The notes beneath the pieces are model-generated. The model did not search any database, was not told the origin of the DNA, and was given only the letters and a program-made list of their open reading frames with translations. Shown here in pieces: positions 50,957 through 62,520 of a stretch of 64,000 bases of DNA; within the stretch, counting starts at the first letter, position 1, and each line of letters starts with the position of its first letter. Source of the DNA: a virus (taxonomy: Duplodnaviria; Caudoviricetes); IMG/VR virus record IMGVR_UViG_3300032303_002590. The stretch is one strand, 5' to 3'. A program made the translations under genes and the position numbers.

Positions 50957-51040
50957 GGAAGGCATCCGGCTGGATCAGGAGCTACTCTTGAAAAGTAGTA
51001 GCAGGTAATACTGTTGTGGGTTCGAGTCCCACGTCTTCCT
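50957..51040 (+). tRNA. tRNA-Ser(TGA)
   Basis: CTACT-CTTGAAA-AGTAG; long variable arm; GTGGG-TTCGAGT-CCCAC. Confidence 0.9.
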
Positions 51041-51046
51041 CAATAT

Positions 51047-51118
51047 TGGCTTATAGTGTAACGGTTAGCACAAAACACTTTGACTGTTTTAGTTTGGGTT
51101 CGAATCCCGATAAGCCAT
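51047..51118 (+). tRNA. tRNA-Gln(TTG)
   Basis: AAACA-CTTTGAC-TGTTT; acceptor TGGCTTA/TAAGCCA. Confidence 0.92.
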
Positions 51119-51128
51119 CAAATAATTA

Positions 51129-51204
51129 CTGGATGTAGAGGAGCCCGGTTTATCTCGCTGGCCTTGGACGCTAGAGCACGCAGGTTCGAATCCTGCCATC
51201 CCGA
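51129..51204 (+). tRNA. tRNA-Pro(TGG)
   Basis: CTGGC-CTTGGAC-GCTAG; GCAGG-TTCGAAT-CCTGC. Confidence 0.9.
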
Positions 51205-51210
51205 CAAATT

Positions 51211-51281
51211 GCCCTTCAAGCTTTAAGGTGAAGCACGATACTTTTAATATCGGGAATCAGGATCATTACCTGAGAGGGGTA
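51211..51281 (+). tRNA. tRNA-Lys(TTT), atypical T loop
   Basis: CGATA-CTTTTAA-TATCG; T arm TCAGG-ATCATTA-CCTGA. Confidence 0.8.
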
Positions 51282-51326
51282 CAATGTTAATTAGGTTTTG
51301 GTCGTTTTTCCTAAAAACTACCCGAA

Positions 51327-51397
51327 GCCTCGTTGGCGTAATGGAAGCGTATTTGTTTTACATGCAAATGGCAGTGGTTCGATTCCACTACGAGGTA
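51327..51397 (+). tRNA. tRNA-Val(TAC)
   Basis: TTTGT-TTTACAT-GCAAA; AGTGG-TTCGATT-CCACT. Confidence 0.9.
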
Positions 51398-51402
51398 CAA
51401 AA

Positions 51403-51483
51403 GGGTAGCAAAAGTCGTTCGGATACGGCAGCCAGACTGTAAATTTGGTCCTCACGGGAGTGGTTCGAGTCCACTGCTGCCCA
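51403..51483 (+). tRNA. tRNA-Tyr(GTA)
   Basis: CCAGA-CTGTAAA-TTTGG; variable arm present. Confidence 0.88.
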
Positions 51484-51500
51484 CAAACTAAAATTAATAA

Positions 51501-51821
51501 ATGGAAACTAAAAGTAAATACTCAGGAAGAGGAAATTATAGAGATTTTTCAAAAATATTAATAGGAGAAGAAATTGTTAAAAATTCTTACTATAACTCTA
51601 TCACAGGAGCTCTTAAAAGATATTTATATCGAAATGGAATTAAAAGTGAAAAATGTGAAGATTGTGGTATTACAGAATGGAATAATAAAAAAATTTCGTT
51701 TGATTTAGAACATATAGATGGTAATTCTTCTAATAATTTATTAGAAAATTTAAAAATATTATGTCCTAATTGCCATTCACAAACTTCTACCTATAAAGGA
51801 AGAAATATAAAGAAAAAATAA
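51501..51821 (+). CDS. HNH endonuclease inserted in the tRNA array
   Basis: CEDCG...LEHIDGNSSNN.LENL..LCPNCHSQT. Confidence 0.88.
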   Translation: METKSKYSGRGNYRDFSKILIGEEIVKNSYYNSITGALKRYLYRNGIKSEKCEDCGITEWNNKKISFDLEHIDGNSSNNLLENLKILCPNCHSQTSTYKGRNIKKK

Positions 51822-51823
51822 TT

Positions 51824-51896
51824 GGGTCTTTGGTATAGCTGGTGCGTACGCTAGTCTGAAGAACTAGAGGAGCAGGTTCGATTCCTGCAGGACCCA
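51824..51896 (+). tRNA. tRNA-Phe(GAA)
   Basis: CTAGT-CTGAAGA-ACTAG. Confidence 0.9.
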
Positions 51897-51909
51897 CAAT
51901 ATTAACCTT

Positions 51910-51981
51910 GGACTTGTAGCTCAGAGGAAGAGCGTTCACCTGTTAAGTGAGGGGTCGGGATTTCGAAATTCCCCAAGTCCG
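51910..51981 (+). tRNA. tRNA-Asn(GTT)
   Basis: TTCAC-CTGTTAA-GTGAG; acceptor GGACTTG/CAAGTCC. Confidence 0.88.
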
Positions 51982-51988
51982 CAAAAAT

Positions 51989-52142
51989 GCACGTATAGAT
52001 GTGCTGTGGATACGCAGAGAACACATCGAGTGGGTTAGTGAGGGTAGTAGGTACACAACACTCCTTAATACTAGGATTGGAGCAAAGAGTTGATGCATAC
52101 TACAAGTAGTTAACAAGGCTGGTTCGATTCCAGTTACGGGCG
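51989..52142 (+). ncRNA. Extended tRNA-like RNA (about 154 nt)
   Basis: Acceptor GCACGTA/TACGGGC and T arm GCTGG-TTCGATT-CCAGT enclosing about 120 nt of hairpins. Confidence 0.65.
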
Positions 52143-52147
52143 CAATT

Positions 52148-52219
52148 GCTCCTATAGTAGAATGGTTAGCACACATCTCTGATAAGGATGAAATGGAAGT
52201 TCAATTCTTCCTAGGAGTA
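52148..52219 (+). tRNA. tRNA-Ile(GAT)
   Basis: CATCT-CTGATAA-GGATG. Confidence 0.9.
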
Positions 52220-52225
52220 CAAAAT

Positions 52226-52310
52226 GGAAAGTAAATCACACAGGGTGTGGGACCGCTTGCTAAGCGAATCGTGCGTTAATTCGCATGGGGATCGATACCT
52301 CTGCTTTCCT
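52226..52310 (+). tRNA. tRNA-Ser(GCT)
   Basis: CGC-TTGCTAA-GCG; long variable arm; T loop ATCGATA. Confidence 0.8.
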
Positions 52311-52317
52311 CTTTAAA

Positions 52318-52443
52318 AACCTGGTCCCTGTCCTCATAACGTGTTTAAGGAACACAGGAGTTGAATGTGCATTCGGGGCGGATAGTGGTGGGACACTGAT
52401 AAATAAAATCTTAAGCACAAAGATAAGTTAACGGGTTCTTATC
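52318..52443 (+). ncRNA. Putative structured RNA within the tRNA array
   Basis: GTCCC/GGGAC, CTGTCC/GGATAG, GATAAG/CTTATC stems. Confidence 0.4.
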
Positions 52444-52447
52444 AATT

Positions 52448-52515
52448 ACCAAGAGGTCAAGGACCAAGGACGGCTCATATCCGACCTTAGAATGGAGCGT
52501 TACCATTTCTTGGTA
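52448..52515 (+). tRNA. tRNA-Met/Ile2(CAT), minimal D arm and atypical T loop
   Basis: Acceptor ACCAAGA/TCTTGGT; D arm GGTC-AAG-GACC; CGG-CTCATAT-CCG; AATGG-AGCGTTA-CCATT. Confidence 0.7.
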
Positions 52516-52573
52516 CTGCATCTCCCAAGGGAGAAGGCTCTGGTTGACGATCTGACCTTATAGATCGTAACAT

Positions 52574-52647
52574 GGTGATTGTAGCTGAATTGGTAAAGCG
52601 TCTGATTGTGGTTCAGGAGATTGTGGGTTCGAGTCCCACCCTTCACA
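52574..52647 (+). tRNA. tRNA-His(GTG)
   Basis: TCTGA-TTGTGGT-TCAGG; G-1 present; two acceptor mismatches. Confidence 0.8.
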
Positions 52648-52653
52648 CTTAAT

Positions 52654-52727
52654 GCCCTCATGGTGAAACTGGTAAACACAACGGTTTTAAGCGCCGTAAG
52701 CTGTAGGTTCGAGTCCTACTGGGGGTA
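52654..52727 (+). tRNA. tRNA-Leu(TAA), short variable loop
   Basis: ACGGT-TTTAAGC-GCCGT; 5-nt variable region. Confidence 0.85.
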
Positions 52728-52797
52728 CAAAAATTATATGGAATAACATATAAAATTACAAAATATAGTGTAATTATATGTAAACACATATACAATT

Positions 52798-52869
52798 GGT
52801 CTTATAGTTTAATTGGAAAAACTTATCGCTACGAACGATAGAACAAAGGTTCGATCCCTTTTAAGACCT
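52798..52869 (+). tRNA. tRNA-Arg(ACG)
   Basis: TATCG-CTACGAA-CGATA. Confidence 0.9.
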
Positions 52870-52874
52870 CAACT

Positions 52875-52947
52875 GCCCTTATAGCATAAATGGAAATGCA
52901 ACATCCTTCTAAGATGTAAAATGGAGATTCGAATTCTTCTAGGGGTA
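52875..52947 (+). tRNA. tRNA-Arg(TCT)
   Basis: ACATC-CTTCTAA-GATGT. Confidence 0.88.
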
Positions 52948-53041
52948 CAAAAAAATCGCATGTATAGACAGATGATAATAATCAAAAGAGCTATTAAAGA
53001 AGTCTGATCAACTTTGGTAGAGTAAGCGATACTCTGCAAAT

Positions 53042-53112
53042 GCGTTCCGCAGACAAGGTGTCGGTACGGTCTCCAAAACTGTTACGGCTGGGTTCGATTC
53101 CTAGGGTTCGCG
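53042..53112 (+). tRNA. tRNA-Trp(CCA)
   Basis: ACGGT-CTCCAAA-ACTGT; CTGGG-TTCGATT-CCTAG; two T-T acceptor mismatches. Confidence 0.8.
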
Positions 53113-53275
53113 CAAGAATTTATAGTAAGAAACAAAGGGCAGGGCACAAAGACACTGAACATTGGAAGAGGTCGAGGAACTTCCATTACTATAAATTAAA
53201 ACAAATTGTTCATAACTTTATGGCTAGTTCTATAATTTCTTAAAATTTTCGTATATTTATAATAAACGGTAAGAT

Positions 53276-53977
53276 ATGAAAAAAATATGTACTAGGTGTA
53301 AAGAAGAAAAGGATTTAGATGAGTTTAGTAATTATAAAAGTTCTAAAGATGGTAAACATATTTACTGCAAAATATGCTCTAGAGATAAATCAAAACAACG
53401 ATACTCTCAGGATACTGAAAGAATAAAAAAGTATCGTGAGGATAATAAAGAAAAGATAAAAGAAATAAACAAAGCTTATAGTCTTAAAAATAAAGAGATA
53501 TTAAATGCTCGTTCTAAACAATGGAATTTAGATAATAAAGAAAAGAGACAAGAGTATGTAAAGCAATGGGCCAGGGAAAATTACGAAAAGAACCATTCTA
53601 AAGTGAGAGAATACCAAAACACCTATAGTAGGAGTAAGTATGCCAACGATCCTCTTTACAGACTCGCTCAACAACTTCGATCACTAATATATCAGAGTTT
53701 TAAGTATAAGTATAAAAAGCAAAAAAGAACACAGACAATACTAGGATGTACCTACGAAGAGTTCAGAATATACCTAGAGTCGAAATTTGAACCTTGGATG
53801 AATTGGGAAAACCAAGGATTGTACAATGGAGATTTTAATTTTGGTTGGGACATGGATCATATAGTGCCAGCTTCAAGTGCAAAAACTGAAGAGGAGATTT
53901 GTAAACTAAATCACTATACTAATTTACGACCCCTATGTTCTAAGGTAAACAGAGATATAAAGAAAAATAAAATATAA
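53276..53977 (+). CDS. HNH homing endonuclease-like protein (paralog of 26422 and 62591)
   Basis: CTRC...CKIC; WDMDHIVP...LNHYTNLRPL...N. Confidence 0.8.
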   Translation: MKKICTRCKEEKDLDEFSNYKSSKDGKHIYCKICSRDKSKQRYSQDTERIKKYREDNKEKIKEINKAYSLKNKEILNARSKQWNLDNKEKRQEYVKQWARENYEKNHSKVREYQNTYSRSKYANDPLYRLAQQLRSLIYQSFKYKYKKQKRTQTILGCTYEEFRIYLESKFEPWMNWENQGLYNGDFNFGWDMDHIVPASSAKTEEEICKLNHYTNLRPLCSKVNRDIKKNKI

Positions 53978-53981
53978 AGTC

Positions 53982-54488
53982 ATGTCAAAACATCAGAGAA
54001 CCTTAGTTATTGATTCAAGTTTTATGGCTCGCAGTATCATATCGACTGAGCGTGCTTTCGTGATTTCGTATAAGGGTAATGCAGAAGTTATAGCTGAACA
54101 CCCAGAAACATTCGGATTAGTAAATCCAAAACTAGAAATTTATAAACCTTCAATCATTAGGGTTTACAAATACGTAAAACAAAACATTCAAAAAGTTCCT
54201 CTAACAAGAGAGAATGTTTATCGAAGAGATAATTACGAATGTGTTTATTGCGGAGCAAGTCACATCAAGTCTCTAACGTTAGATCACGTCATTCCACAAT
54301 CAAAAGGTGGACAAAATGCTTGGGATAATTTAGTAACAGCATGTAGAACTTGTAATTCAGAAAAAGCAGATTTAACTCTTGAGGAATATGGTAAAGAGAT
54401 AGTAGAACCAAAAAGACCTCATTACTTAATGCTAATGAAACAACTAACATACATTCCAGTGGAATGGGAAACATTTTTATTTTTCTAG
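53982..54488 (+). CDS. HNH endonuclease (McrA-like)
   Basis: RRDNYECVYCG...TLDHVIPQSKGG...WDNLVTACRTCNSEK. Confidence 0.9.
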   Translation: MSKHQRTLVIDSSFMARSIISTERAFVISYKGNAEVIAEHPETFGLVNPKLEIYKPSIIRVYKYVKQNIQKVPLTRENVYRRDNYECVYCGASHIKSLTLDHVIPQSKGGQNAWDNLVTACRTCNSEKADLTLEEYGKEIVEPKRPHYLMLMKQLTYIPVEWETFLFF

Positions 54489-54495
54489 TAAAAAG

Positions 54496-54532
54496 TTTGG
54501 ATATTTAAAATATTGTTCGTATATTTAAGTAT
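54496..54532 (+). promoter_or_regulatory. Host-type promoter for the second tRNA block
   Basis: TTG 54497-N20-TATATTTAAGTAT. Confidence 0.7.
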
Positions 54533-54543
54533 AAGAAAGAAAC

Positions 54544-54649
54544 ATCACCTACTACGTAACGCACGATCGACGACACGTACTGTCTGGCAGGTCAGGCTAG
54601 GTGAAAATATAGAAAGGGAGATGTGGGTTCGAATCCCACCTGATCACCA
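54544..54649 (+). ncRNA. tRNA-like RNA ending in encoded CCA, lacking an anticodon arm
   Basis: GTGGG-TTCGAAT-CCCAC-CTGATC-A-CCA; GGTCAG/CTGATC; TCACCTA/TAGGTGA. Confidence 0.6.
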
Positions 54650-54690
54650 AATGGGGTCGGTAGTAATAATTGGCAATTACACTCTAGTAT

Positions 54691-54761
54691 GGGCAGTTGG
54701 CCGATTGGTTAGGCGCAGGATTGCAAACTCTGTTAGGTTGGTTCGATTCCAACATTGCCCT
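54691..54761 (+). tRNA. tRNA-Cys(GCA)
   Basis: CAGGA-TTGCAAA-CTCTG; U73. Confidence 0.88.
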
Positions 54762-54769
54762 CAACAATT

Positions 54770-54843
54770 GCCCGAGTAGCCGAATTGGTATAGGCGCTAG
54801 ACTTAGGATCTAGATTTTGCGAGTTCGAGTCTCGCCTTGGGTA
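54770..54843 (+). tRNA. tRNA-Leu(TAG), short variable loop
   Basis: CTAGA-CTTAGGA-TCTAG; variable region ATTTT. Confidence 0.88.
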
Positions 54844-54848
54844 CAAAA

Positions 54849-54915
54849 TTACAGTTAGCTTATAGTAAAGCAGCAGGGGCTAACCTGCAGAACGGATACG
54901 AACACCGACTGTAAT
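54849..54915 (+). ncRNA. Degenerate tRNA-like cloverleaf with 6-nt loop GGCTAA
   Basis: TTACAGT/ACTGTAA; GCTT/AAGC; GCAGG-GGCTAA-CCTGC; CGG...CCG. Confidence 0.55.
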
Positions 54916-54921
54916 TTAATT

Positions 54922-54994
54922 GCCTTGGTAGCTCAATTGGTAGAGCACTTGTTTTGTAAACAAGAAGTTGCAGGTTCGAGTCCTGTCCTTGGCT
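54922..54994 (+). tRNA. tRNA-Thr(TGT)
   Basis: CTTGT-TTTGTAA-ACAAG. Confidence 0.9.
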
Positions 54995-54998
54995 CAAA

Positions 54999-55101
54999 GT
55001 GTTGTTCCCTTGAGAAAGGAATAGAGTTTGGTAGGTAGGAAAATTAGATACAACTTGCGTGGTTAGTAAAATCTCTACACAACACAGAGGAACTCAACCT
55101 C
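54999..55101 (+). ncRNA. Putative structured RNA between tRNA-Thr and tRNA-Gly
   Basis: GTGTTG/CAACAC, TTCC/GGAA, TAGAG/CTCTA, GAGG/CCTC; complementary loops TTGAG/CTCAA. Confidence 0.5.
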
Positions 55102-55107
55102 AAAATT

Positions 55108-55179
55108 GCGAATGTCGTATAATGGTCATTACTCTTGACTTCCAATCAAGGGATGAGGGTTCGATTCCCTCCATTCGCT
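55108..55179 (+). tRNA. tRNA-Gly(TCC)
   Basis: CTTGA-CTTCCAA-TCAAG. Confidence 0.92.
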
Positions 55180-55185
55180 CAACCT

Positions 55186-55257
55186 GCTGCCATCGTCTAA
55201 CGGTCAGGACCTATGGTTTTCATCCATAAAATCGGAGTTCGATTCTCCGTGGCAGTA
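55186..55257 (+). tRNA. tRNA-Glu(TTC)
   Basis: TATGG-TTTTCAT-CCATA. Confidence 0.9.
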
Positions 55258-55262
55258 CAAAA

Positions 55263-55335
55263 GGGGTCATAGCTCAATTGGCTGAGCGTTACTTTTGCAA
55301 GGTAAAGGATGTGGGTTCGACTCCCATTGGCTCCA
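55263..55335 (+). tRNA. tRNA-Ala(TGC)
   Basis: TTACT-TTTGCAA-GGTAA; G3:U70. Confidence 0.92.
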
Positions 55336-55340
55336 CAAAA

Positions 55341-55411
55341 GGTCTAGTAGTGAAAAAGCATCATCCAACACTGTCACTGTTGAGTAGCCGGAGCGTTACC
55401 GGTCTAGACCG
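55341..55411 (+). tRNA. tRNA-Asp(GTC), atypical T loop
   Basis: CAACA-CTGTCAC-TGTTG; GCCGG-AGCGTTA-CCGGT. Confidence 0.82.
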
Positions 55412-55420
55412 CTAATAAAT

Positions 55421-55493
55421 TGCGTTAAAGTGTAAAGGTTGCATCCTGGTCTCATAAGCCAGGGGGGTGGTTCGAGTCCACGTTACGCTACCA
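55421..55493 (+). tRNA. tRNA-Met(CAT), initiator-like
   Basis: CTGGT-CTCATAA-GCCAG; 1:72 mismatch; encoded CCA. Confidence 0.8.
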
Positions 55494-55565
55494 GGCCTTG
55501 TAGCTCAAAGGAGGAGCAGTTCGCTCATAACGAAAAGGTTGGGATTTCGAAATTCCCCAAGGCCA
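55494..55565 (+). tRNA. tRNA-Ile2/Met(CAT)
   Basis: TTCG-CTCATAA-CGAA; acceptor GGCCTTG/CAAGGCC. Confidence 0.85.
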
Positions 55566-55631
55566 CTAAATTTATCCAATATGAGAGCAATTCAATCGTC
55601 TCCAATGTAGTTTTAGCTATTAGCTAAAATT

Positions 55632-56031: not shown

Positions 56032-56523
56032 ATGAAAAAAGAATTTATACCTTACGCAAAAGCATTAGAATTAGCAAAACTTAATTTTAACGAAAAGTGT
56101 TTTGGGTACTATGGTACAGAAAATGAATTACATATTGAAATTAGTTGTAACTTAGATTCTAACTTAGTAAGACGCAACTTTATTGCATCACCAACATTCT
56201 CACAAGCATTTAGATTTTTTAGAGAGAAGTATGATTTATGTGCGTATGTTGTAACTGTTCCAAATTATATAAAAGGAGAAAGTAAGTATAAAACAAGGTT
56301 CTCTTATGAAATATATGGAATGAATGAAAAAAGTTCATCAACTGTCTTTATAACAATTAGAGATGAGGTAAATTTATCGACACACGAAGAAGCAGAACTT
56401 GAATGTCTAAAAAAATTAATAGAAATAAGACAATCACAAAAAACTTCAGATGAAAGTCCACATACTAGAACATTCAGAACACCATCAAGTGATTATAACT
56501 CTAGAGGTCAATATCGTAAATAA
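56032..56523 (+). CDS. Hypothetical phage protein
   Basis: EFIPY..ALEL..L.F.E.C; PTFSQAFRFFREK; THEEAELECLKKLIEI. Confidence 0.65.
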   Translation: MKKEFIPYAKALELAKLNFNEKCFGYYGTENELHIEISCNLDSNLVRRNFIASPTFSQAFRFFREKYDLCAYVVTVPNYIKGESKYKTRFSYEIYGMNEKSSSTVFITIRDEVNLSTHEEAELECLKKLIEIRQSQKTSDESPHTRTFRTPSSDYNSRGQYRK

Positions 56524-56563: not shown

Positions 56564-57475
56564 ATGAAAAATTCGTTATCATCAAAAGGGTTATCAATGT
56601 CTCAAGCACAATCAATCTCTAACCTTTGTAATCAAAGAGCAAAAGAGATTTCTAGTCAACTAGACAACATCAACAATGTGTCTAAAGAGTTAACCATAGG
56701 AACAGAAACCTATATTGAAACTCAAGGGAACCCAATCCCAGAAAACGTAGTAGTATTATTAACTTCTAAAGCAAGATATTCTGCCACTCAAGCATTCTTG
56801 ATGGAGAACATCAAAGCTAAAGATGAATTGATTAACAAAATCAAATACGAAGGATTCAAGTACGATATAGAAGCTCCAGTTCGTCCACAAACAATCTCAG
56901 AAGATCTTCCTTTAGAAGTAGATGCAGATTTTGGTTTGGATCAATTAACTGCAGCCGAGTATAACGAATACTTAGAAGCAGAGGCTTATGCTTCACATAT
57001 TGGTCAGTTCATTCATAAAAAAGGAACTCTAGACCGTTTAAGAGCAGAACTTCCTACCATTAAAACTTTAGAGTTTATGGAAATTGAAGTAGGAAAGAAA
57101 ACTCCACTTAAAGTATCTATTCACCACACACCTGAGCAATTGCTTGCAATTCATGAAGAGTTAGCAGCACTTCATAGAGGGTATGAGCAAAAAGTGAATT
57201 ACTTCAAATCAAAAGCAAAGAATGCTGTTACTTCTGAGAATGCTAGAATTCAAAAAGAAAGAGGTGAGATCCAAGCAAGAGTGAATCAACAAAATGCAGA
57301 TCTATCAAATGCTTATAAATTAGCATATGAGGAGTGGACTGCCAATCAACGTAAAGCTCAACATGAGTTTGAAGAAAAACGTCAAGGTGCAATTCAAGAT
57401 GCTGTTAATTTAAAAATTGAAGTAGCAGAAAGATTCCAGGACGTAGTGGATGAGTTCTTAAACCAATTAAAATAA
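56564..57475 (+). CDS. Long coiled-coil protein (likely start 56564)
   Basis: MKNSLSSKGLSMSQAQSISNLCNQ; EAYASHIGQFIH; AGTTATG start context. Confidence 0.65.
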   Translation: MKNSLSSKGLSMSQAQSISNLCNQRAKEISSQLDNINNVSKELTIGTETYIETQGNPIPENVVVLLTSKARYSATQAFLMENIKAKDELINKIKYEGFKYDIEAPVRPQTISEDLPLEVDADFGLDQLTAAEYNEYLEAEAYASHIGQFIHKKGTLDRLRAELPTIKTLEFMEIEVGKKTPLKVSIHHTPEQLLAIHEELAALHRGYEQKVNYFKSKAKNAVTSENARIQKERGEIQARVNQQNADLSNAYKLAYEEWTANQRKAQHEFEEKRQGAIQDAVNLKIEVAERFQDVVDEFLNQLK

Positions 57476-57476
57476 T

Positions 57477-57785
57477 ATGAAGCTAGGAGAGTTTATCAAA
57501 AACTTCAGCCATAATAATATGGTTAGACTCCACTATAAAGAAAAGGGTGGTAATAGAATTGTATTAGATGAATGGGATGATGTATCAATGGACCACGAGA
57601 TAGTGAACGGTAAAGGTAAAAATCGTCACTACGTTAACAATGAGGTATTAGGTTTAGTGGGAATATATTTTCAATCTGGACACACTCATTATCCTGATGC
57701 CATTAATATAGTTATAGAAGAGTTAGAAAATCAACCATTCATAGAAGAAGTAGAAAATCAACAAAGTTATCAACAATCAAATTAA
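57477..57785 (+). CDS. Hypothetical protein
   Basis: 102 aa ORF. Confidence 0.55.
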   Translation: MKLGEFIKNFSHNNMVRLHYKEKGGNRIVLDEWDDVSMDHEIVNGKGKNRHYVNNEVLGLVGIYFQSGHTHYPDAINIVIEELENQPFIEEVENQQSYQQSN

Positions 57786-57791
57786 GTTATT

Positions 57792-58076
57792 ATGAACGAA
57801 GTACAAGAAGTAGAACAATTAGACAGACCAGACAGACCATCAAGATTAGAAGACGTATCTTGTGAAAAACAATGGCAACCATCAAGACAAGAATGTCTTA
57901 GAGAGTATGAAGTAAGGATTAAATTTCTAACCCTAGGATGTATTGTTTCTGTAGGATGTAAAGAAATTCCATTTACAACAATTAAAGAAGGAATGGAAGC
58001 TTTAAATCAATACGTAGCAAAACCTTACGAGACAAGACAGATTTGGGAGAAAAGATTCCAAGAAGAAGAAAAATAA
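57792..58076 (+). CDS. Hypothetical protein
   Basis: IKFLTLGCIVSVGCKEIPF. Confidence 0.55.
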   Translation: MNEVQEVEQLDRPDRPSRLEDVSCEKQWQPSRQECLREYEVRIKFLTLGCIVSVGCKEIPFTTIKEGMEALNQYVAKPYETRQIWEKRFQEEEK

Positions 58077-58080
58077 TTTG

Positions 58081-58410
58081 GTGCTAAGGAGGTAAGCACA
58101 AGCCGATCCTCCAAAGCTTTATGCTGGGATAGTAGAGTCTTAAATTATAGATACATATAAAAATGACTTTTAATCATTCTATGACAGACATAACACCTCC
58201 GGGTGTTTGTAAACTCGCTTCCCTACAACTTAAACCTAAACTGAGATAGAACTCAACAGCTAGACATGTTACTCCGTCAGAGGAGATTAAAAGTGGCTAG
58301 CGATTCTAAGACTTAGTTTTTGTCCTTGCCCTTGTGGTAGTGGAAGGTTTTTGACTTTGATTTTGCATTTGACCTAGTCTATATGCTTTACATCCCAGCA
58401 ACATTTTTTT
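58081..58410 (+). ncRNA. Large structured ncRNA with hexamer repeats
   Basis: 5' pseudoknot; TGCTGGGAT/ATCCCAGCA closing stem; several long-range pairings; YTTGNY repeats. Confidence 0.65.
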
Positions 58411-58424
58411 TAAAAATAATTACA

Positions 58425-58467
58425 AAAAGGCTTGTTTATTCAAGTCTTTTTTTGTATATTTAAGTAT
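58425..58467 (+). promoter_or_regulatory. Terminator hairpin overlapping a host-type promoter
   Basis: GGCTTG..CAAGTC followed by T7; TTG 58432-N20-TATATTTAAGTAT. Confidence 0.65.
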
Positions 58468-58490
58468 TAGAAACAAATAAAATAAAGGTT

Positions 58491-58664
58491 ATGAAAATTA
58501 AAGATAAAGTGTTTATAAATAAAGAATTACTGGGTAAATTTGAAAAAAATATACCTGGAGTAATTATCGATACTTGGGGAAGTGGTTTTGAGGTTAAGGA
58601 GGTCGCAACTGGATATATTTACAGGTGTTTTAAGGAAGAGGTAAGTAAAACTAAATTAAAATAA
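58491..58664 (+). CDS. Small hypothetical protein (57 aa)
   Basis: MKIKDKVFIN...; AAGGTTATG start context. Confidence 0.45.
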   Translation: MKIKDKVFINKELLGKFEKNIPGVIIDTWGSGFEVKEVATGYIYRCFKEEVSKTKLK

Positions 58665-58669
58665 AAGTT

Positions 58670-59320
58670 ATGAAAATAGAATTACAAAAAGGACAACAAT
58701 TGTTCTTCACATCAGACACACATTACGCTCACTCAAACATTTGTAGTGCTACTACAAACTGGACTGAGTCTTCAAACTTGACAAGAGAATTCAATTCACT
58801 TGATCATATGAATGCTACTCTAGTGAATAACATTAACTGTATGGTTGGTGAAGATGATATCTTAATTCACTTAGGTGACTGGTCATTTGGAGGATTTGAA
58901 AAAGTACAAGAATTCAGAGATAGAATTGTTTGTAAAAACATTCACTTGGTACTTGGGAATCACGATCATCATATCGAACGAAACAAAGAAGGTATTCAAT
59001 CATTATTCTCCTCAGTACAAAACTACTTGAGACTAGAAGTAAGAAGACAAGTTAGTAAATCTATGATGGAAAAGTTTATTTTCGTTTGTATGCACTATCC
59101 AATAGCGTCATGGCATGATATGAACCAAGGAGTAATTCACTTGCATGGACACGTTCATTTACCTGCAAACCTACGAATAGCCGAGGGTAAAGCAATGGAT
59201 GTAGGAGTAGATGGAAATGGTTTAGAGCCTTTATCAATGAACGAGGTATTATCGTTAATGGATAAACAACCAATTAAAAAATTAGCCTTACCAAAGGATC
59301 ATCATGAGAAAAGAATCTAA
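58670..59320 (+). CDS. Calcineurin-like metallophosphoesterase
   Basis: FTSDTH, HLGD, GNHD, MHYP, LHGHVH, DVGVD. Confidence 0.9.
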   Translation: MKIELQKGQQLFFTSDTHYAHSNICSATTNWTESSNLTREFNSLDHMNATLVNNINCMVGEDDILIHLGDWSFGGFEKVQEFRDRIVCKNIHLVLGNHDHHIERNKEGIQSLFSSVQNYLRLEVRRQVSKSMMEKFIFVCMHYPIASWHDMNQGVIHLHGHVHLPANLRIAEGKAMDVGVDGNGLEPLSMNEVLSLMDKQPIKKLALPKDHHEKRI

Positions 59321-60173
59321 AAAAATATTACATAAAGGAAGAATCTATCTGAAAGATGGAGTATGGGTAGTGAGGTATGAAACTAAAGAGAAAGTTAAAG
59401 GAGGTTCTCCTAAACAACTTGGAAGTTATAATATCAGAACAAAAGCTAATTTTATACCTATCATAGTAGAAGACACTAAAAATTTAATAGATCCTTATAG
59501 TCAGGGTAAAGAAACTTGTTTTGAATATATCATAAAAACTGAAATAGAAAACGGTTATAAGAATCAACCACCAGGAACAATAGGGTTTGTAGCGCAAACT
59601 AAACAAGTATGGTACGCTAAATTATGGCCTGTTTCTGAAATGGCTCAAGAATTGCAACATTATTTTGAAACAACACCTCAAGAAAAAATTGATGAGGATT
59701 GGGAGAAAGTAAAGGAATTTGACTTAGTAGGACCAACAGTAGAAGAATTTTTAGGAATAAATCAAAATAGTATGAAAGAGTTATTTTTATTAAGAGGATT
59801 ACCTGGCTCAGGTAAATCAACATTAGCAAAATCAATTGGACCTATTACTATTGAAGCAGATCAATATTTTATAGATTCAGATGGAGAGTATAAATTTGAT
59901 GCTTCACAATTAAAAAATGCTCACCAATATTGCCAAGGACAAACTCAAGCATGGATGAAGATGAACTCGGATCAACTTAATACTGATAAGATTGTAGTAT
60001 CAAATACATTTACTCAGGAATGGGAAATGCAACCATACTTTGACCTAGCAGACAAATACGGATACAGAGTTTATTCTTTAATTGTAGAAAATAGACATGG
60101 AGGAGTAAACGAGCATGGAGTACCAGAAGAAAAATTAGTACAAATGAAAAATAGATTTCAAATTCTTCTCTAA
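59304..60173 (+). CDS. Fusion ORF with C-terminal polynucleotide kinase-like (AAA_33) domain; internal ATG at 59772
   Basis: MKELFLLRGLPGSGKSTLA, EADQYF, AHQYC, VSNTFT. Confidence 0.8.
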   Translation: MRKESKKILHKGRIYLKDGVWVVRYETKEKVKGGSPKQLGSYNIRTKANFIPIIVEDTKNLIDPYSQGKETCFEYIIKTEIENGYKNQPPGTIGFVAQTKQVWYAKLWPVSEMAQELQHYFETTPQEKIDEDWEKVKEFDLVGPTVEEFLGINQNSMKELFLLRGLPGSGKSTLAKSIGPITIEADQYFIDSDGEYKFDASQLKNAHQYCQGQTQAWMKMNSDQLNTDKIVVSNTFTQEWEMQPYFDLADKYGYRVYSLIVENRHGGVNEHGVPEEKLVQMKNRFQILL

Positions 60174-61091: not shown

Positions 61092-61415
61092 ATGGAAAAT
61101 AAAAAAGCACCTAAGAAAATCCAAATAGAAAAACAAATATATTGGGGTAATAACAGTAAACAAATGACTTGGGCTGATATTAAACATCTGGAATTACATG
61201 ACGATGACGTAATACACTCAGGATGGGTTGATGATGAAAATTTTGATTATCATGGGTATTGGCATAATGAAATTACTCGTATGGTTGAAGAAACAGATCA
61301 ACAATTTGAAAAACGTATTGCTAAGATGAAGCAAGACGATATTTGGGCAAAAGAAAGAAGAAGAGAAAGTTATTTAAGACTAAAAGAAGAATTTGAAAAT
61401 GGAAAATCAAAATAG
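61092..61415 (+). CDS. Hypothetical protein
   Basis: Ends ERRRESYLRLKEEFE. Confidence 0.55.
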   Translation: MENKKAPKKIQIEKQIYWGNNSKQMTWADIKHLELHDDDVIHSGWVDDENFDYHGYWHNEITRMVEETDQQFEKRIAKMKQDDIWAKERRRESYLRLKEEFENGKSK

Positions 61416-62520
61416 TGTTTGCTTTGTAGCAAAAATAAATGAAGTAAAAGCAATCGAAGGAGCTGATAACATCGAACAAGCAGTTATCGGAGGATGGAAT
61501 TGTATTGTAAAAAAAGGATCACATAAAGTAAATGATCTAGTAGGAGTTGCAACAACTGATGCAGTTATTCCTCAAGGACTAGCAGATGCTATTGGAATTG
61601 CAAATTACCTAAGAAAAGGAAATAGAGTTAGAACTGTAAAGCTAAGAGGAGTGTATTCTGAATGCTTAGTAATTCCAGATCAATTCTTACCTATTGGTAT
61701 CAACCATGAAGGTAAAGATTTAATGGAAACTTTAAAAATTTCTAAATACGAACCACCAGTTAAACAAATTCAACTTGCTTCAGGTAGAAAAATTAAATGG
61801 AGAGACAATCAAAACTTCCATATCTATTACAAATTCCCAAACCTTAAAAACGTTGACGGAATGTTCACTGAACAAGATGAAGTTCAAATTACTAGAAAGA
61901 TTCACGGTACAAATGCTAGATACGGTATTGTGAAGAAAGGTCAATTAACATTCTGGGATAAAGTAAAAAAATTCTTAAGAATTGCAAATGAGTGGATTGA
62001 CTACGAATACATTTACGGATCACACAATTGTGAGAAAGGAAGTGACTCTCAAGGATTCTATTCAACTGATGTTTGGAGAACAGTTGCTGAAAAGTATGAT
62101 ATCAAAGCAAAGCTTTGGCAAGAAGCAAAACGTCAAGGTTCTGATTTAGGTGAAGGATTAATTCTTTACGGAGAAATTTACGGAGCAGGTATTCAAAAGA
62201 ATTACGAATATGGTTTAAAAGATATTGAGTTTGTAGCATTCGATATTAAAATAAATGGAGAATATTGTGCGACAGAAGTAACTGAAGTTATTACTCAAGA
62301 TTTATTAGACCTTCCTCACGTAGAGGTTCTTTATGAAGGATTATGGAATCAAGAGATACAAGATGAATATGTATTTAACAACTTCATTCCAGGTACAAAA
62401 GTACCGCATGAAGGAATTGTAATCAAAACAACCTCAGGTGAAAGAAACAAAGTAGCAAAGGTAATTAATAGCGATTATCTTATTTATGGTGAAAAACACG
62501 ATATAGGGGATAGTCATTAG
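61399..62520 (+). CDS. RNA ligase, DRB0094/Rnl2-like family
   Basis: IEGADNIE, VKLRGVYSE, motif I RKIHGTN, YGEIYG, FDI, EGIVIK, AKVIN. Confidence 0.88.
   Translation: MENQNSVCFVAKINEVKAIEGADNIEQAVIGGWNCIVKKGSHKVNDLVGVATTDAVIPQGLADAIGIANYLRKGNRVRTVKLRGVYSECLVIPDQFLPIGINHEGKDLMETLKISKYEPPVKQIQLASGRKIKWRDNQNFHIYYKFPNLKNVDGMFTEQDEVQITRKIHGTNARYGIVKKGQLTFWDKVKKFLRIANEWIDYEYIYGSHNCEKGSDSQGFYSTDVWRTVAEKYDIKAKLWQEAKRQGSDLGEGLILYGEIYGAGIQKNYEYGLKDIEFVAFDIKINGEYCATEVTEVITQDLLDLPHVEVLYEGLWNQEIQDEYVFNNFIPGTKVPHEGIVIKTTSGERNKVAKVINSDYLIYGEKHDIGDSH

Follow-up and report, generated by a model that had tools for sequence, protein, structure and literature searches.

A conserved structured RNA with phased six-base units downstream of a 303-aa protein gene in uncultured tailed phages

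In a 64-kb stretch of DNA from a large tailed phage (this whole stretch is called the window below), a gap of ~415 nt extends from the end of a 94-aa ORF at 58076 to the start of a 57-aa ORF at 58491 and contains no ORF of at least 40 aa. What does this gap encode, and to which of the surrounding genes, if any, does its product belong? An earlier note on this DNA had proposed a large, highly paired non-coding RNA whose six-base repeats may bind an oligomeric protein, possibly the product of the gene at 56564-57475, which it called coiled-coil, in a ribonucleoprotein of a kind not yet described, and every string that it quoted is indeed present where it was placed. On the evidence of comparison with homologues, the segment 58080-58403 (+) is a conserved structured non-coding RNA. 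Its surroundings in the window are organised as follows.

56564-57475 (+): partner gene, upstream of the RNA, encoding a 303-aa protein of unassigned family
57477-58076 (+): two small ORFs of 102 and 94 aa (57477-57785 and 57792-58076), wedged between the 303-aa gene and the RNA
58080-58403 (+): structured non-coding RNA, whole conserved extent, ~325 nt
58424-58451 (+): terminator-like hairpin with T run, 3' of the RNA
58670-59320: metallophosphoesterase, downstream of the RNA
59304-60173: AAA_33 kinase-domain protein, downstream of the RNA
61393-62520: RNA ligase, downstream of the RNA

The window also carries 21 tRNA genes at 50957-55566 (ARAGORN, Rfam). By DNA, its closest cultured relative is Flavobacterium phage immuto, which matches in patches only. 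The two small ORFs at 57477-58076, for which no family match was found, are not part of the gene-RNA module; relatives of the 94-aa ORF occur at nine loci, at the RNA or just ahead of it, and other loci have different inserts. Even behind these two inserted ORFs the RNA begins directly past a TAA stop. On its other side, the hairpin at 58424-58451 is the probable 3' end of the transcription unit. The segment 58408-58493, which contains this hairpin, is 85 % identical to immuto DNA, and a 441-nt query finds five places in the immuto genome; the segment is a terminator-plus-promoter-like cassette, probably one that this phage group uses routinely between genes. In a DNA search of cultured phages this cassette alone gave a match, to immuto, in which no counterpart of the RNA proper was found. 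No promoter specific to the RNA was seen in a scan limited to sigma-70-type sites.

The Rfam search that the earlier note had recommended leaves the RNA without an entry: at the gathering score, Rfam 15 places nothing in or overlapping 58077-58405, and at E up to 10 the region 57900-58700 returns only two chance mir-4000 matches, both on the terminator hairpin. Covariance models gave no match to GOLLD, ROOL, tmRNA, RNase P, 6S, Y RNA or group I/II introns, ARAGORN finds neither tRNA nor tmRNA at 58077-58405, and no description of the RNA or of its partner protein was found in the literature searched. Folding energy is a weak argument by itself since the single-sequence fold, compared with shuffles, has a z of -3.1 on this strand and -2.9 on the other, that is, equally mild values on both; the case for an RNA therefore rests on covariation. 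Related contigs were fetched from IMG/VR phages via the neighbouring phosphoesterase or via the invariant 15-mer CTGAGATAGAACTCA, and yielded 62 distinct full-length copies of ~45-93 % identity in addition to remote copies. The closer full-length homologues are 70-93 % identical, and the remoter ones were found by nhmmer. The elements that can be recognised along the RNA in the window are listed here from 5' to 3'.

58083-58117 (+): P1 hairpin, 58083-85/58115-17 (GCU/AGC) and 58088-92/58108-12 (GGAGG/CCTCC)
58093-58107 (+): P1 loop UAAGCACAAGCCGAU, 15 nt, with bases invariant or almost so
58122-58138 (+): 5' strand of the closing stem P2, which pairs with 58385-58400; 16 bp, A58131 bulged
58162-58178 (+): P3, variable hairpin, 5-bp stem and 7-nt loop CUUUUAA
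58192-58207 (+): P4, variable hairpin with tetraloop, AACACC-UCCG-GGUGUU
58218-58222 (+): 5' strand of P5, CUUCC, with long-range partner GGAAG at 58342-46
58242-58255 (+): P6, putative hairpin within the invariant CUGAGAUAGAACUCA, gone from the remotest relatives
58259-58301 (+): P7, GCUAG/CUAGC and CAU/GUG round a variable inner hairpin
58308-58316 (+): unpaired conserved motif GAGACUUAG (AAGACUUAG in the window), of high information content
58317-58340 (+): track A, four units NNN-U-U/A-G: UUUUUG UCCUUG CCCUUG UGGUAG
58342-58346 (+): 3' strand of P5, GGAAG, between tracks A and B
58348-58377 (+): track B, five units: UUUUUG ACUUUG AUUUUG CAUUUG ACCUAG
58379-58400 (+): conserved CUAUAU followed by the 3' strand of P2 (information profile and covariation)

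Covariation was tested helix by helix on the 62 homologues, with the partner strand slid by one or two columns as a control, because an all-against-all listing was too noisy owing to G-U pairs. The helices P1, P2, P5 and P7 are 88-100 % paired and show double changes in 33 of their 37 pairs; sliding the 3' partner by one or two columns causes a sharp drop in their pairing. In this alignment, covariation supports all four. Both parts of the P1 stem are ~94 % paired, with double changes in every one of the eight pairs. P2 is 88-92 % paired (double changes in 15 of 16 pairs) and P7 97-99 % (6 of 8), although the inner hairpin of the latter differs in length by up to ~50 nt among copies. The short long-range helix P5 is 99.7 % paired, with double changes in four of its five pairs; its variants include CUUCU/AGAAG, CUUUU/AAAAG and CUCAA/UUGAG, as well as GUCUAGAC/GUCUAGAC in one remote relative. 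RNAalifold draws a local hairpin CCUU/AAGG, which was discarded in favour of P5: it has no double change, and its pairing is barely lowered by the slide.

The remaining helices are of a different kind. P4 appears as a hairpin in nearly every copy folded singly, and compensatory variants are visible by eye (ACACC/GGTGT, ATGGC/GCCAT, ACGGC/GGCCC). P6 is beyond the reach of covariation because none of the 62 copies departs from CUGAGAUAGAACUCA. Pairing of the P6 loop (AUAGA) with UCUAU at 58378-82, which would make a pseudoknot, was considered and dropped; by eye, a remote relative alters both sides without compensation. The region of P3 is variable and aligns poorly, but most copies folded singly have hairpins there. 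The loop CUUUUAA is found on four unrelated stems of 4-6 bp in 13 of the 62 copies, against an expectation of 0.08 in shuffles. P3 in the window, AAUGA-CUUUUAA-UCAUU, resembles the anticodon arm of tRNA-Lys(UUU), a likeness also noted in L092, L169 and L190, and the tRNA-Lys gene of this very phage (51211-51282) has the same CUUUUAA loop. Six further copies have UUGAUAU or UUGAUAA loops (GAU, Ile-like).

These results bear unevenly on the pairings proposed in the earlier note. Its GGAGG/CCTCC stem, 58088-92 with 58108-12, forms standard pairs in 94 % of cases over the 62 copies and has double changes in all five pairs, and its closing stem, 58122-30 with 58392-400, does equally well (92 % standard pairs, double changes in 9 of 9) and can even be extended by 58132-38/58385-91. 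The other half of the H-type pseudoknot that it drew fares otherwise. GTGCT/AGCAC pairs in only 72 % of cases, shows no double change and leaves relatives with GTACC that still retain AGCAC; since this stem fails the covariation test, there is no evidence for the pseudoknot. AGTCTTA/TAAGACT (73 % pairs) is replaced by a different arrangement in which part of the 5' arm (58136-38) belongs to P2 and the 3' arm to the unpaired GAGACUUAG. The perfect 10-bp helix ACTTTTAATC/GATTAAAAGT is paired in 53 % of cases; in 13 of the 62 copies the local CUUUUAA hairpin (58162-78) forms instead, in a region that is poorly aligned. Finally, the T run that the note saw behind the closing stem is not conserved, and the terminator-like hairpin at 58424-58451 is a separate structure.

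The phased hexamers of the earlier note are borne out, and there are more of them, 4 + 5, than it had listed. An information profile of the 62 copies reveals a near-invariant U-U-G with a period of 6 nt. In track A the G falls at 58322, 28, 34 and 40, the last unit being weaker, and in track B at 58353, 59, 65, 71 and 77; the tracks are separated by the 3' strand of P5, which shifts the phase by one base. Neither track changes in length among the 62 copies, so that the number of units is constant. This six-base phasing is the hallmark of the RNA family. The U-U-G cores evolve three to four times more slowly than stems, spacers and other sites, for which the per-site differences between copies of 90-99.5 % identity amount to 0.062, 0.059 and 0.075, respectively. 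The spacers keep pace with the RNA as a whole, and several spacer bases are nearly fixed. Elsewhere in the 64-kb window, on both strands together, three runs of four such units occur and none of five. When tracks and loops were compared with the window by contiguous blastn in search of complementary targets, only short matches at chance level were obtained.

Which gene does the RNA go with? When every ORF up to 4 kb from one of the 62 copies was clustered, the 303-aa gene turned up in all 60 loci that have enough upstream DNA; it always precedes the RNA, on the same strand, and the median offset is a few bases. The two copies without it are cut by the end of the contig. No other constant neighbour emerged from the clustered ORFs within 4 kb. 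In 42 of the 60 loci the RNA starts no more than ~11 nt from the stop codon that ends the gene, while an insert of 150-740 nt separates the two in the other 18, among them the window (602 nt). Overall, in ~70 uncultured phage sequences, the RNA always comes after the 303-aa gene, and the same is true of all four MAG contigs that cover both the gene and the DNA downstream of it. The association with the gene at 56564-57475 on which the earlier note had speculated is borne out at 60 of 60 loci, at six remote loci and on these four contigs. Covariation within the RNA and co-occurrence with the gene in other genomes, the two things whose lack that note had held to speak against its proposal, are both observed. 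Its term RNA-repair genes is also appropriate for the downstream neighbours in the window (phosphoesterase, kinase domain, RNA ligase), but the link that it implied between these genes and the RNA does not extend to the family: among the ORFs within 4 kb of the copies they are neighbours in this phage subgroup only. Of the contexts inspected, roughly two thirds have same-strand tRNA genes within 4 kb of the RNA.

How much of the RNA is essential to the association can be judged from distant members. Four remote protein relatives lead to six loci, and the gene-then-RNA order is kept in all six. Each has a gap of 250-520 nt 3' of the gene, which contains a closing stem of 15-17 bp at the place of P2, unrelated to it in sequence, and a P5 rebuilt from other bases; by eye, two tracks of 4-5 units each flank this helix. 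A hairpin is likewise retained at the place of P1 but not its loop UAAGCACAAGCCGAU, and a CUAYRY motif akin to CUAUAU persists. Since the remote relatives keep the tracks, P2 and P5, whereas P6 is lost in the remotest and the P1 loop in all of them, it is the tracks together with P2 and P5 that define the superfamily. In one locus, a tRNA-like sequence (L202:5410-5490) was noticed by eye ~10 nt past the 3' end of the RNA, which hints that the RNA is transcribed together with tRNAs and perhaps processed in common with them.

The partner protein belongs to a family of near-constant length with 51 invariant columns among 31 diverse members. In its longest version the ORF in the window begins at 56450, within the ORF ahead of it (56032-56523); the family alignment places the true start at the ATG at 56564, which gives 303 aa. 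Searched with a family profile, 1.84 billion cluster representatives yielded 801 relatives at E up to 0.001 (50 % identity clusters), and the records of ten family representatives give no more than 'hypothetical protein' as a name. Searches of Pfam, PHROGs, NCBIfam, PADLOC and PDB sequences, with the single sequence or a profile, gave nothing meaningful, the ESM Atlas no usable match and tblastn against 50,697 cultured-phage records no match at all; among 185,579 species genomes, the protein is found on six MAG contigs only. The AF2 model (pLDDT 86) consists of two copies of a helix, a beta-hairpin and a long helix, followed by C-terminal helices. With this model, Foldseek found nothing convincing in the PDB (best E 0.04, a TolC-like structure, TM 0.2), the BFVD fold search nothing but a family member that has no name, and VIA-align wide a best Z of 7.2, within the noise range for helical models. 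These fold searches revealed no recognisable RNA-binding fold. The protein is acidic overall (pI 5.5-6.1); basic, aromatic and His residues form a conserved patch at positions 146-232. An invariant cluster of His and Glu residues (E141, H146, H152, H188, H189, H198, H205 and E209) lies on predicted helices and a beta-hairpin. In the model, this cluster (residues 141-209) resembles a metal-binding site, and the partner protein may be an enzyme and not a passive RNA binder.

How could such a gene and such an RNA work together? The transcript would be a stable, multi-helix RNA of ~325 nt, co-transcribed with the upstream 303-aa gene and ending ahead of the hairpin at 58424-58451. The 16 bp of P2 and the inner long-range P5 would hold the two single-stranded tracks of four and five units at fixed positions, and several copies of the 303-aa protein would load on them, each on a single unit or on two, to build a defined ribonucleoprotein in which the RNA would act as an assembly scaffold or as a regulator. 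Since phased trinucleotide arrays are of the sort read by repeated-subunit proteins, and the RNA is invariably linked to one gene, loading of the 303-aa protein is the most economical reading. That gene and RNA form a phage ribonucleoprotein with the 303-aa protein loaded on the phased units is what we hold to be rather probable; co-transcription, direct binding and stoichiometry are points that we infer from sequence comparison and by analogy with known systems. The conserved patch at 146-232 speaks for such loading, the overall acidity of the protein and the lack of a recognisable RNA-binding fold against it, and a host protein is just as conceivable a reader of the units. Bolder, and correspondingly doubtful, is the proposal that reading RNA periodically was invented independently here, i.e., that a protein with neither a detected tie to RAMP proteins nor a fold match polymerises on six-base U-U-G units along two tracks borne by a scaffold, in a new class of ribonucleoprotein that acts on host or phage RNA. 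Phage tRNA genes are the usual neighbours of the pair, which points to a part in an RNA- or translation-related takeover of the host, or in counter-defence. A particle of this new class may, for instance, protect the tRNA pool of the phage; some members of the family carry decoys that look like the anticodon arm of tRNA-Lys.

The order of gene and RNA, with co-transcription, is also to be expected of a purely cis-acting 3' UTR element that stays on the mRNA of the 303-aa gene, as a shield against 3' exonucleases or as an operator by which the protein or another factor regulates expression of the gene in feedback, and forms no free particle. The beginning of the RNA at the stop codon in most loci, on the same strand and with a terminator-like hairpin behind it, is in keeping with this, as is the lack of a visible promoter of its own in the sigma-70-type scan. 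We nevertheless regard it as unlikely: the 150-740 nt that intervene in 18 of the 60 loci, including the window, bring in extra ORFs and leave the RNA unchanged, and seven helices, invariant loops and a constant set of nine units go far beyond the needs of an mRNA stabiliser. Strict linkage to one phage gene is what a sponge for a host factor would leave unexplained. In that scenario, the U-rich units, and in some copies the anticodon-loop look-alikes, sequester a host RNA-binding protein or a defence nuclease that cuts tRNA, and the 303-aa protein is a helper. We give it a small chance. The tRNA genes within 4 kb in roughly two thirds of contexts, the phosphoesterase, kinase and RNA ligase genes nearby in this window, and the tRNA-Lys-type loop, whose presence on four unrelated stems is far above that in shuffles, speak for it; the anticodon-like hairpin is missing from most copies, though, and the repair genes are neighbours in this subgroup only.

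The alternation of conserved and variable bases in tandem units, on an RNA that is phage-encoded and lies beside the gene, recalls the logic of vrRNA (bioRxiv 10.64898/2026.04.26.720920) and could betray a guide of the VIPR kind, with the protein polymerising on the conserved bases of each unit and presenting the variable ones to a gapped DNA or RNA target. This seems very improbable. The period is 6 and not 5, the motif is U-U-G and not GGY, the spacers change at the RNA's overall rate instead of being hypervariable, with several nearly fixed, and contiguous blastn, to which a gapped code is invisible, detected no complementary target in the 64-kb window. On the protein side, the predicted secondary structure is not RRM-like and no RAMP is among the fold matches listed. 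It is the non-hypervariable spacers and the absence of an ordinary complementary target in the window that weaken the guide reading.

Few large structured RNAs come with a dedicated protein partner, and RNase P, SRP, CRISPR and VIPR have each opened new biology or provided new tools. The present RNA-protein pair is widespread in uncultured aquatic phages (801 protein clusters at 50 % identity), and neither the RNA nor the 303-aa protein matches a described family. Moreover, the constant 4 + 5 array of six-base units leads to a clear and testable prediction of stoichiometry. If the protein does bind the units, the pair would exemplify a novel mode of recognition between RNA and protein, and the RNA/translation region of large phage genomes would gain a new player; if the RNA is only a 3' UTR element, it is all the same an unusually elaborate one.

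Several known systems share individual traits with this pair. Type III toxin-antitoxin loci (ToxIN-like) have tandem repeats of ~36 nt upstream of the gene for an endoribonuclease toxin. Here the repeats are of 6 nt and downstream of the gene, and the protein has no PADLOC or Pfam match. The period of 6 nt itself is that of Cas7, the RAMP protein of class 1 CRISPR systems, of which one protomer covers 6 nt of single-stranded RNA. In the Cas7 backbone every sixth base is displaced (bioRxiv 10.64898/2026.04.26.720927). The crRNA spacers differ from the present tracks in being unique guides without a repeated trinucleotide, and no CRISPR or cas features were seen at this locus. GOLLD and ROOL, which often lie beside tRNA genes, are likewise large and ornate orphan RNAs of phages and prophages. 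They form RNA-only assemblies (Nature 2025, PMC12286853) and have no fixed partner gene, whereas the RNA described here is smaller and always follows one protein gene.

The likeness to VIPR is broader: VIPR is mostly phage-encoded, and its protein gene adjoins a non-coding RNA made of short tandem units plus a conserved folded part. The vrRNA is ~100 nt long and has 9-16 five-base units YNNGG with hypervariable NN (bioRxiv 10.64898/2026.04.26.720920), and VIPR filaments contain one protomer per repeat, the unit being 5 nt (bioRxiv 10.64898/2026.04.26.720927). The repeats are defined in the methods of the former paper as at least four tandem 5-nt units of the form YNNGG, NNNGG, YNNNG or NNNNG. 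In the present RNA, by contrast, 4 + 5 six-base units NNN-U-U/A-G are embedded in a multi-helix scaffold of 325 nt; five-base units are absent, G recurs every six bases, and the spacers show no hypervariability (0.059 differences per site, compared with 0.062 in stems). Vipr is an RRM/RAMP protein, whereas for the 303-aa protein a mostly helical structure with two beta-hairpins is predicted, and no RAMP, with its RRM core, glycine-rich loop and thumb, is among the Foldseek and VIA-align matches listed. No vap-like accessory gene accompanies the pair.

TRAP (MtrB) of Bacillus, whose small beta-sandwich subunits of 75 aa form an 11-mer ring, reads 11 phased (G/U)AG triplets with spacers of 2-3 nt in the trp leader. 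Like the tracks A and B, these are evenly spaced trinucleotides in single-stranded RNA, with a period of 5-6 nt in TRAP. Attenuation of the TRAP type finds no counterpart at this locus, where the partner protein has no Pfam match and the RNA follows the partner gene instead of lying in a leader; the repeats are part of a large scaffold RNA downstream of the 303-aa gene, and there is no relation in sequence or fold. We rate the gene and its RNA as a new RNA-protein family, with a working principle that is probably like that of the known readers of phased repeats.
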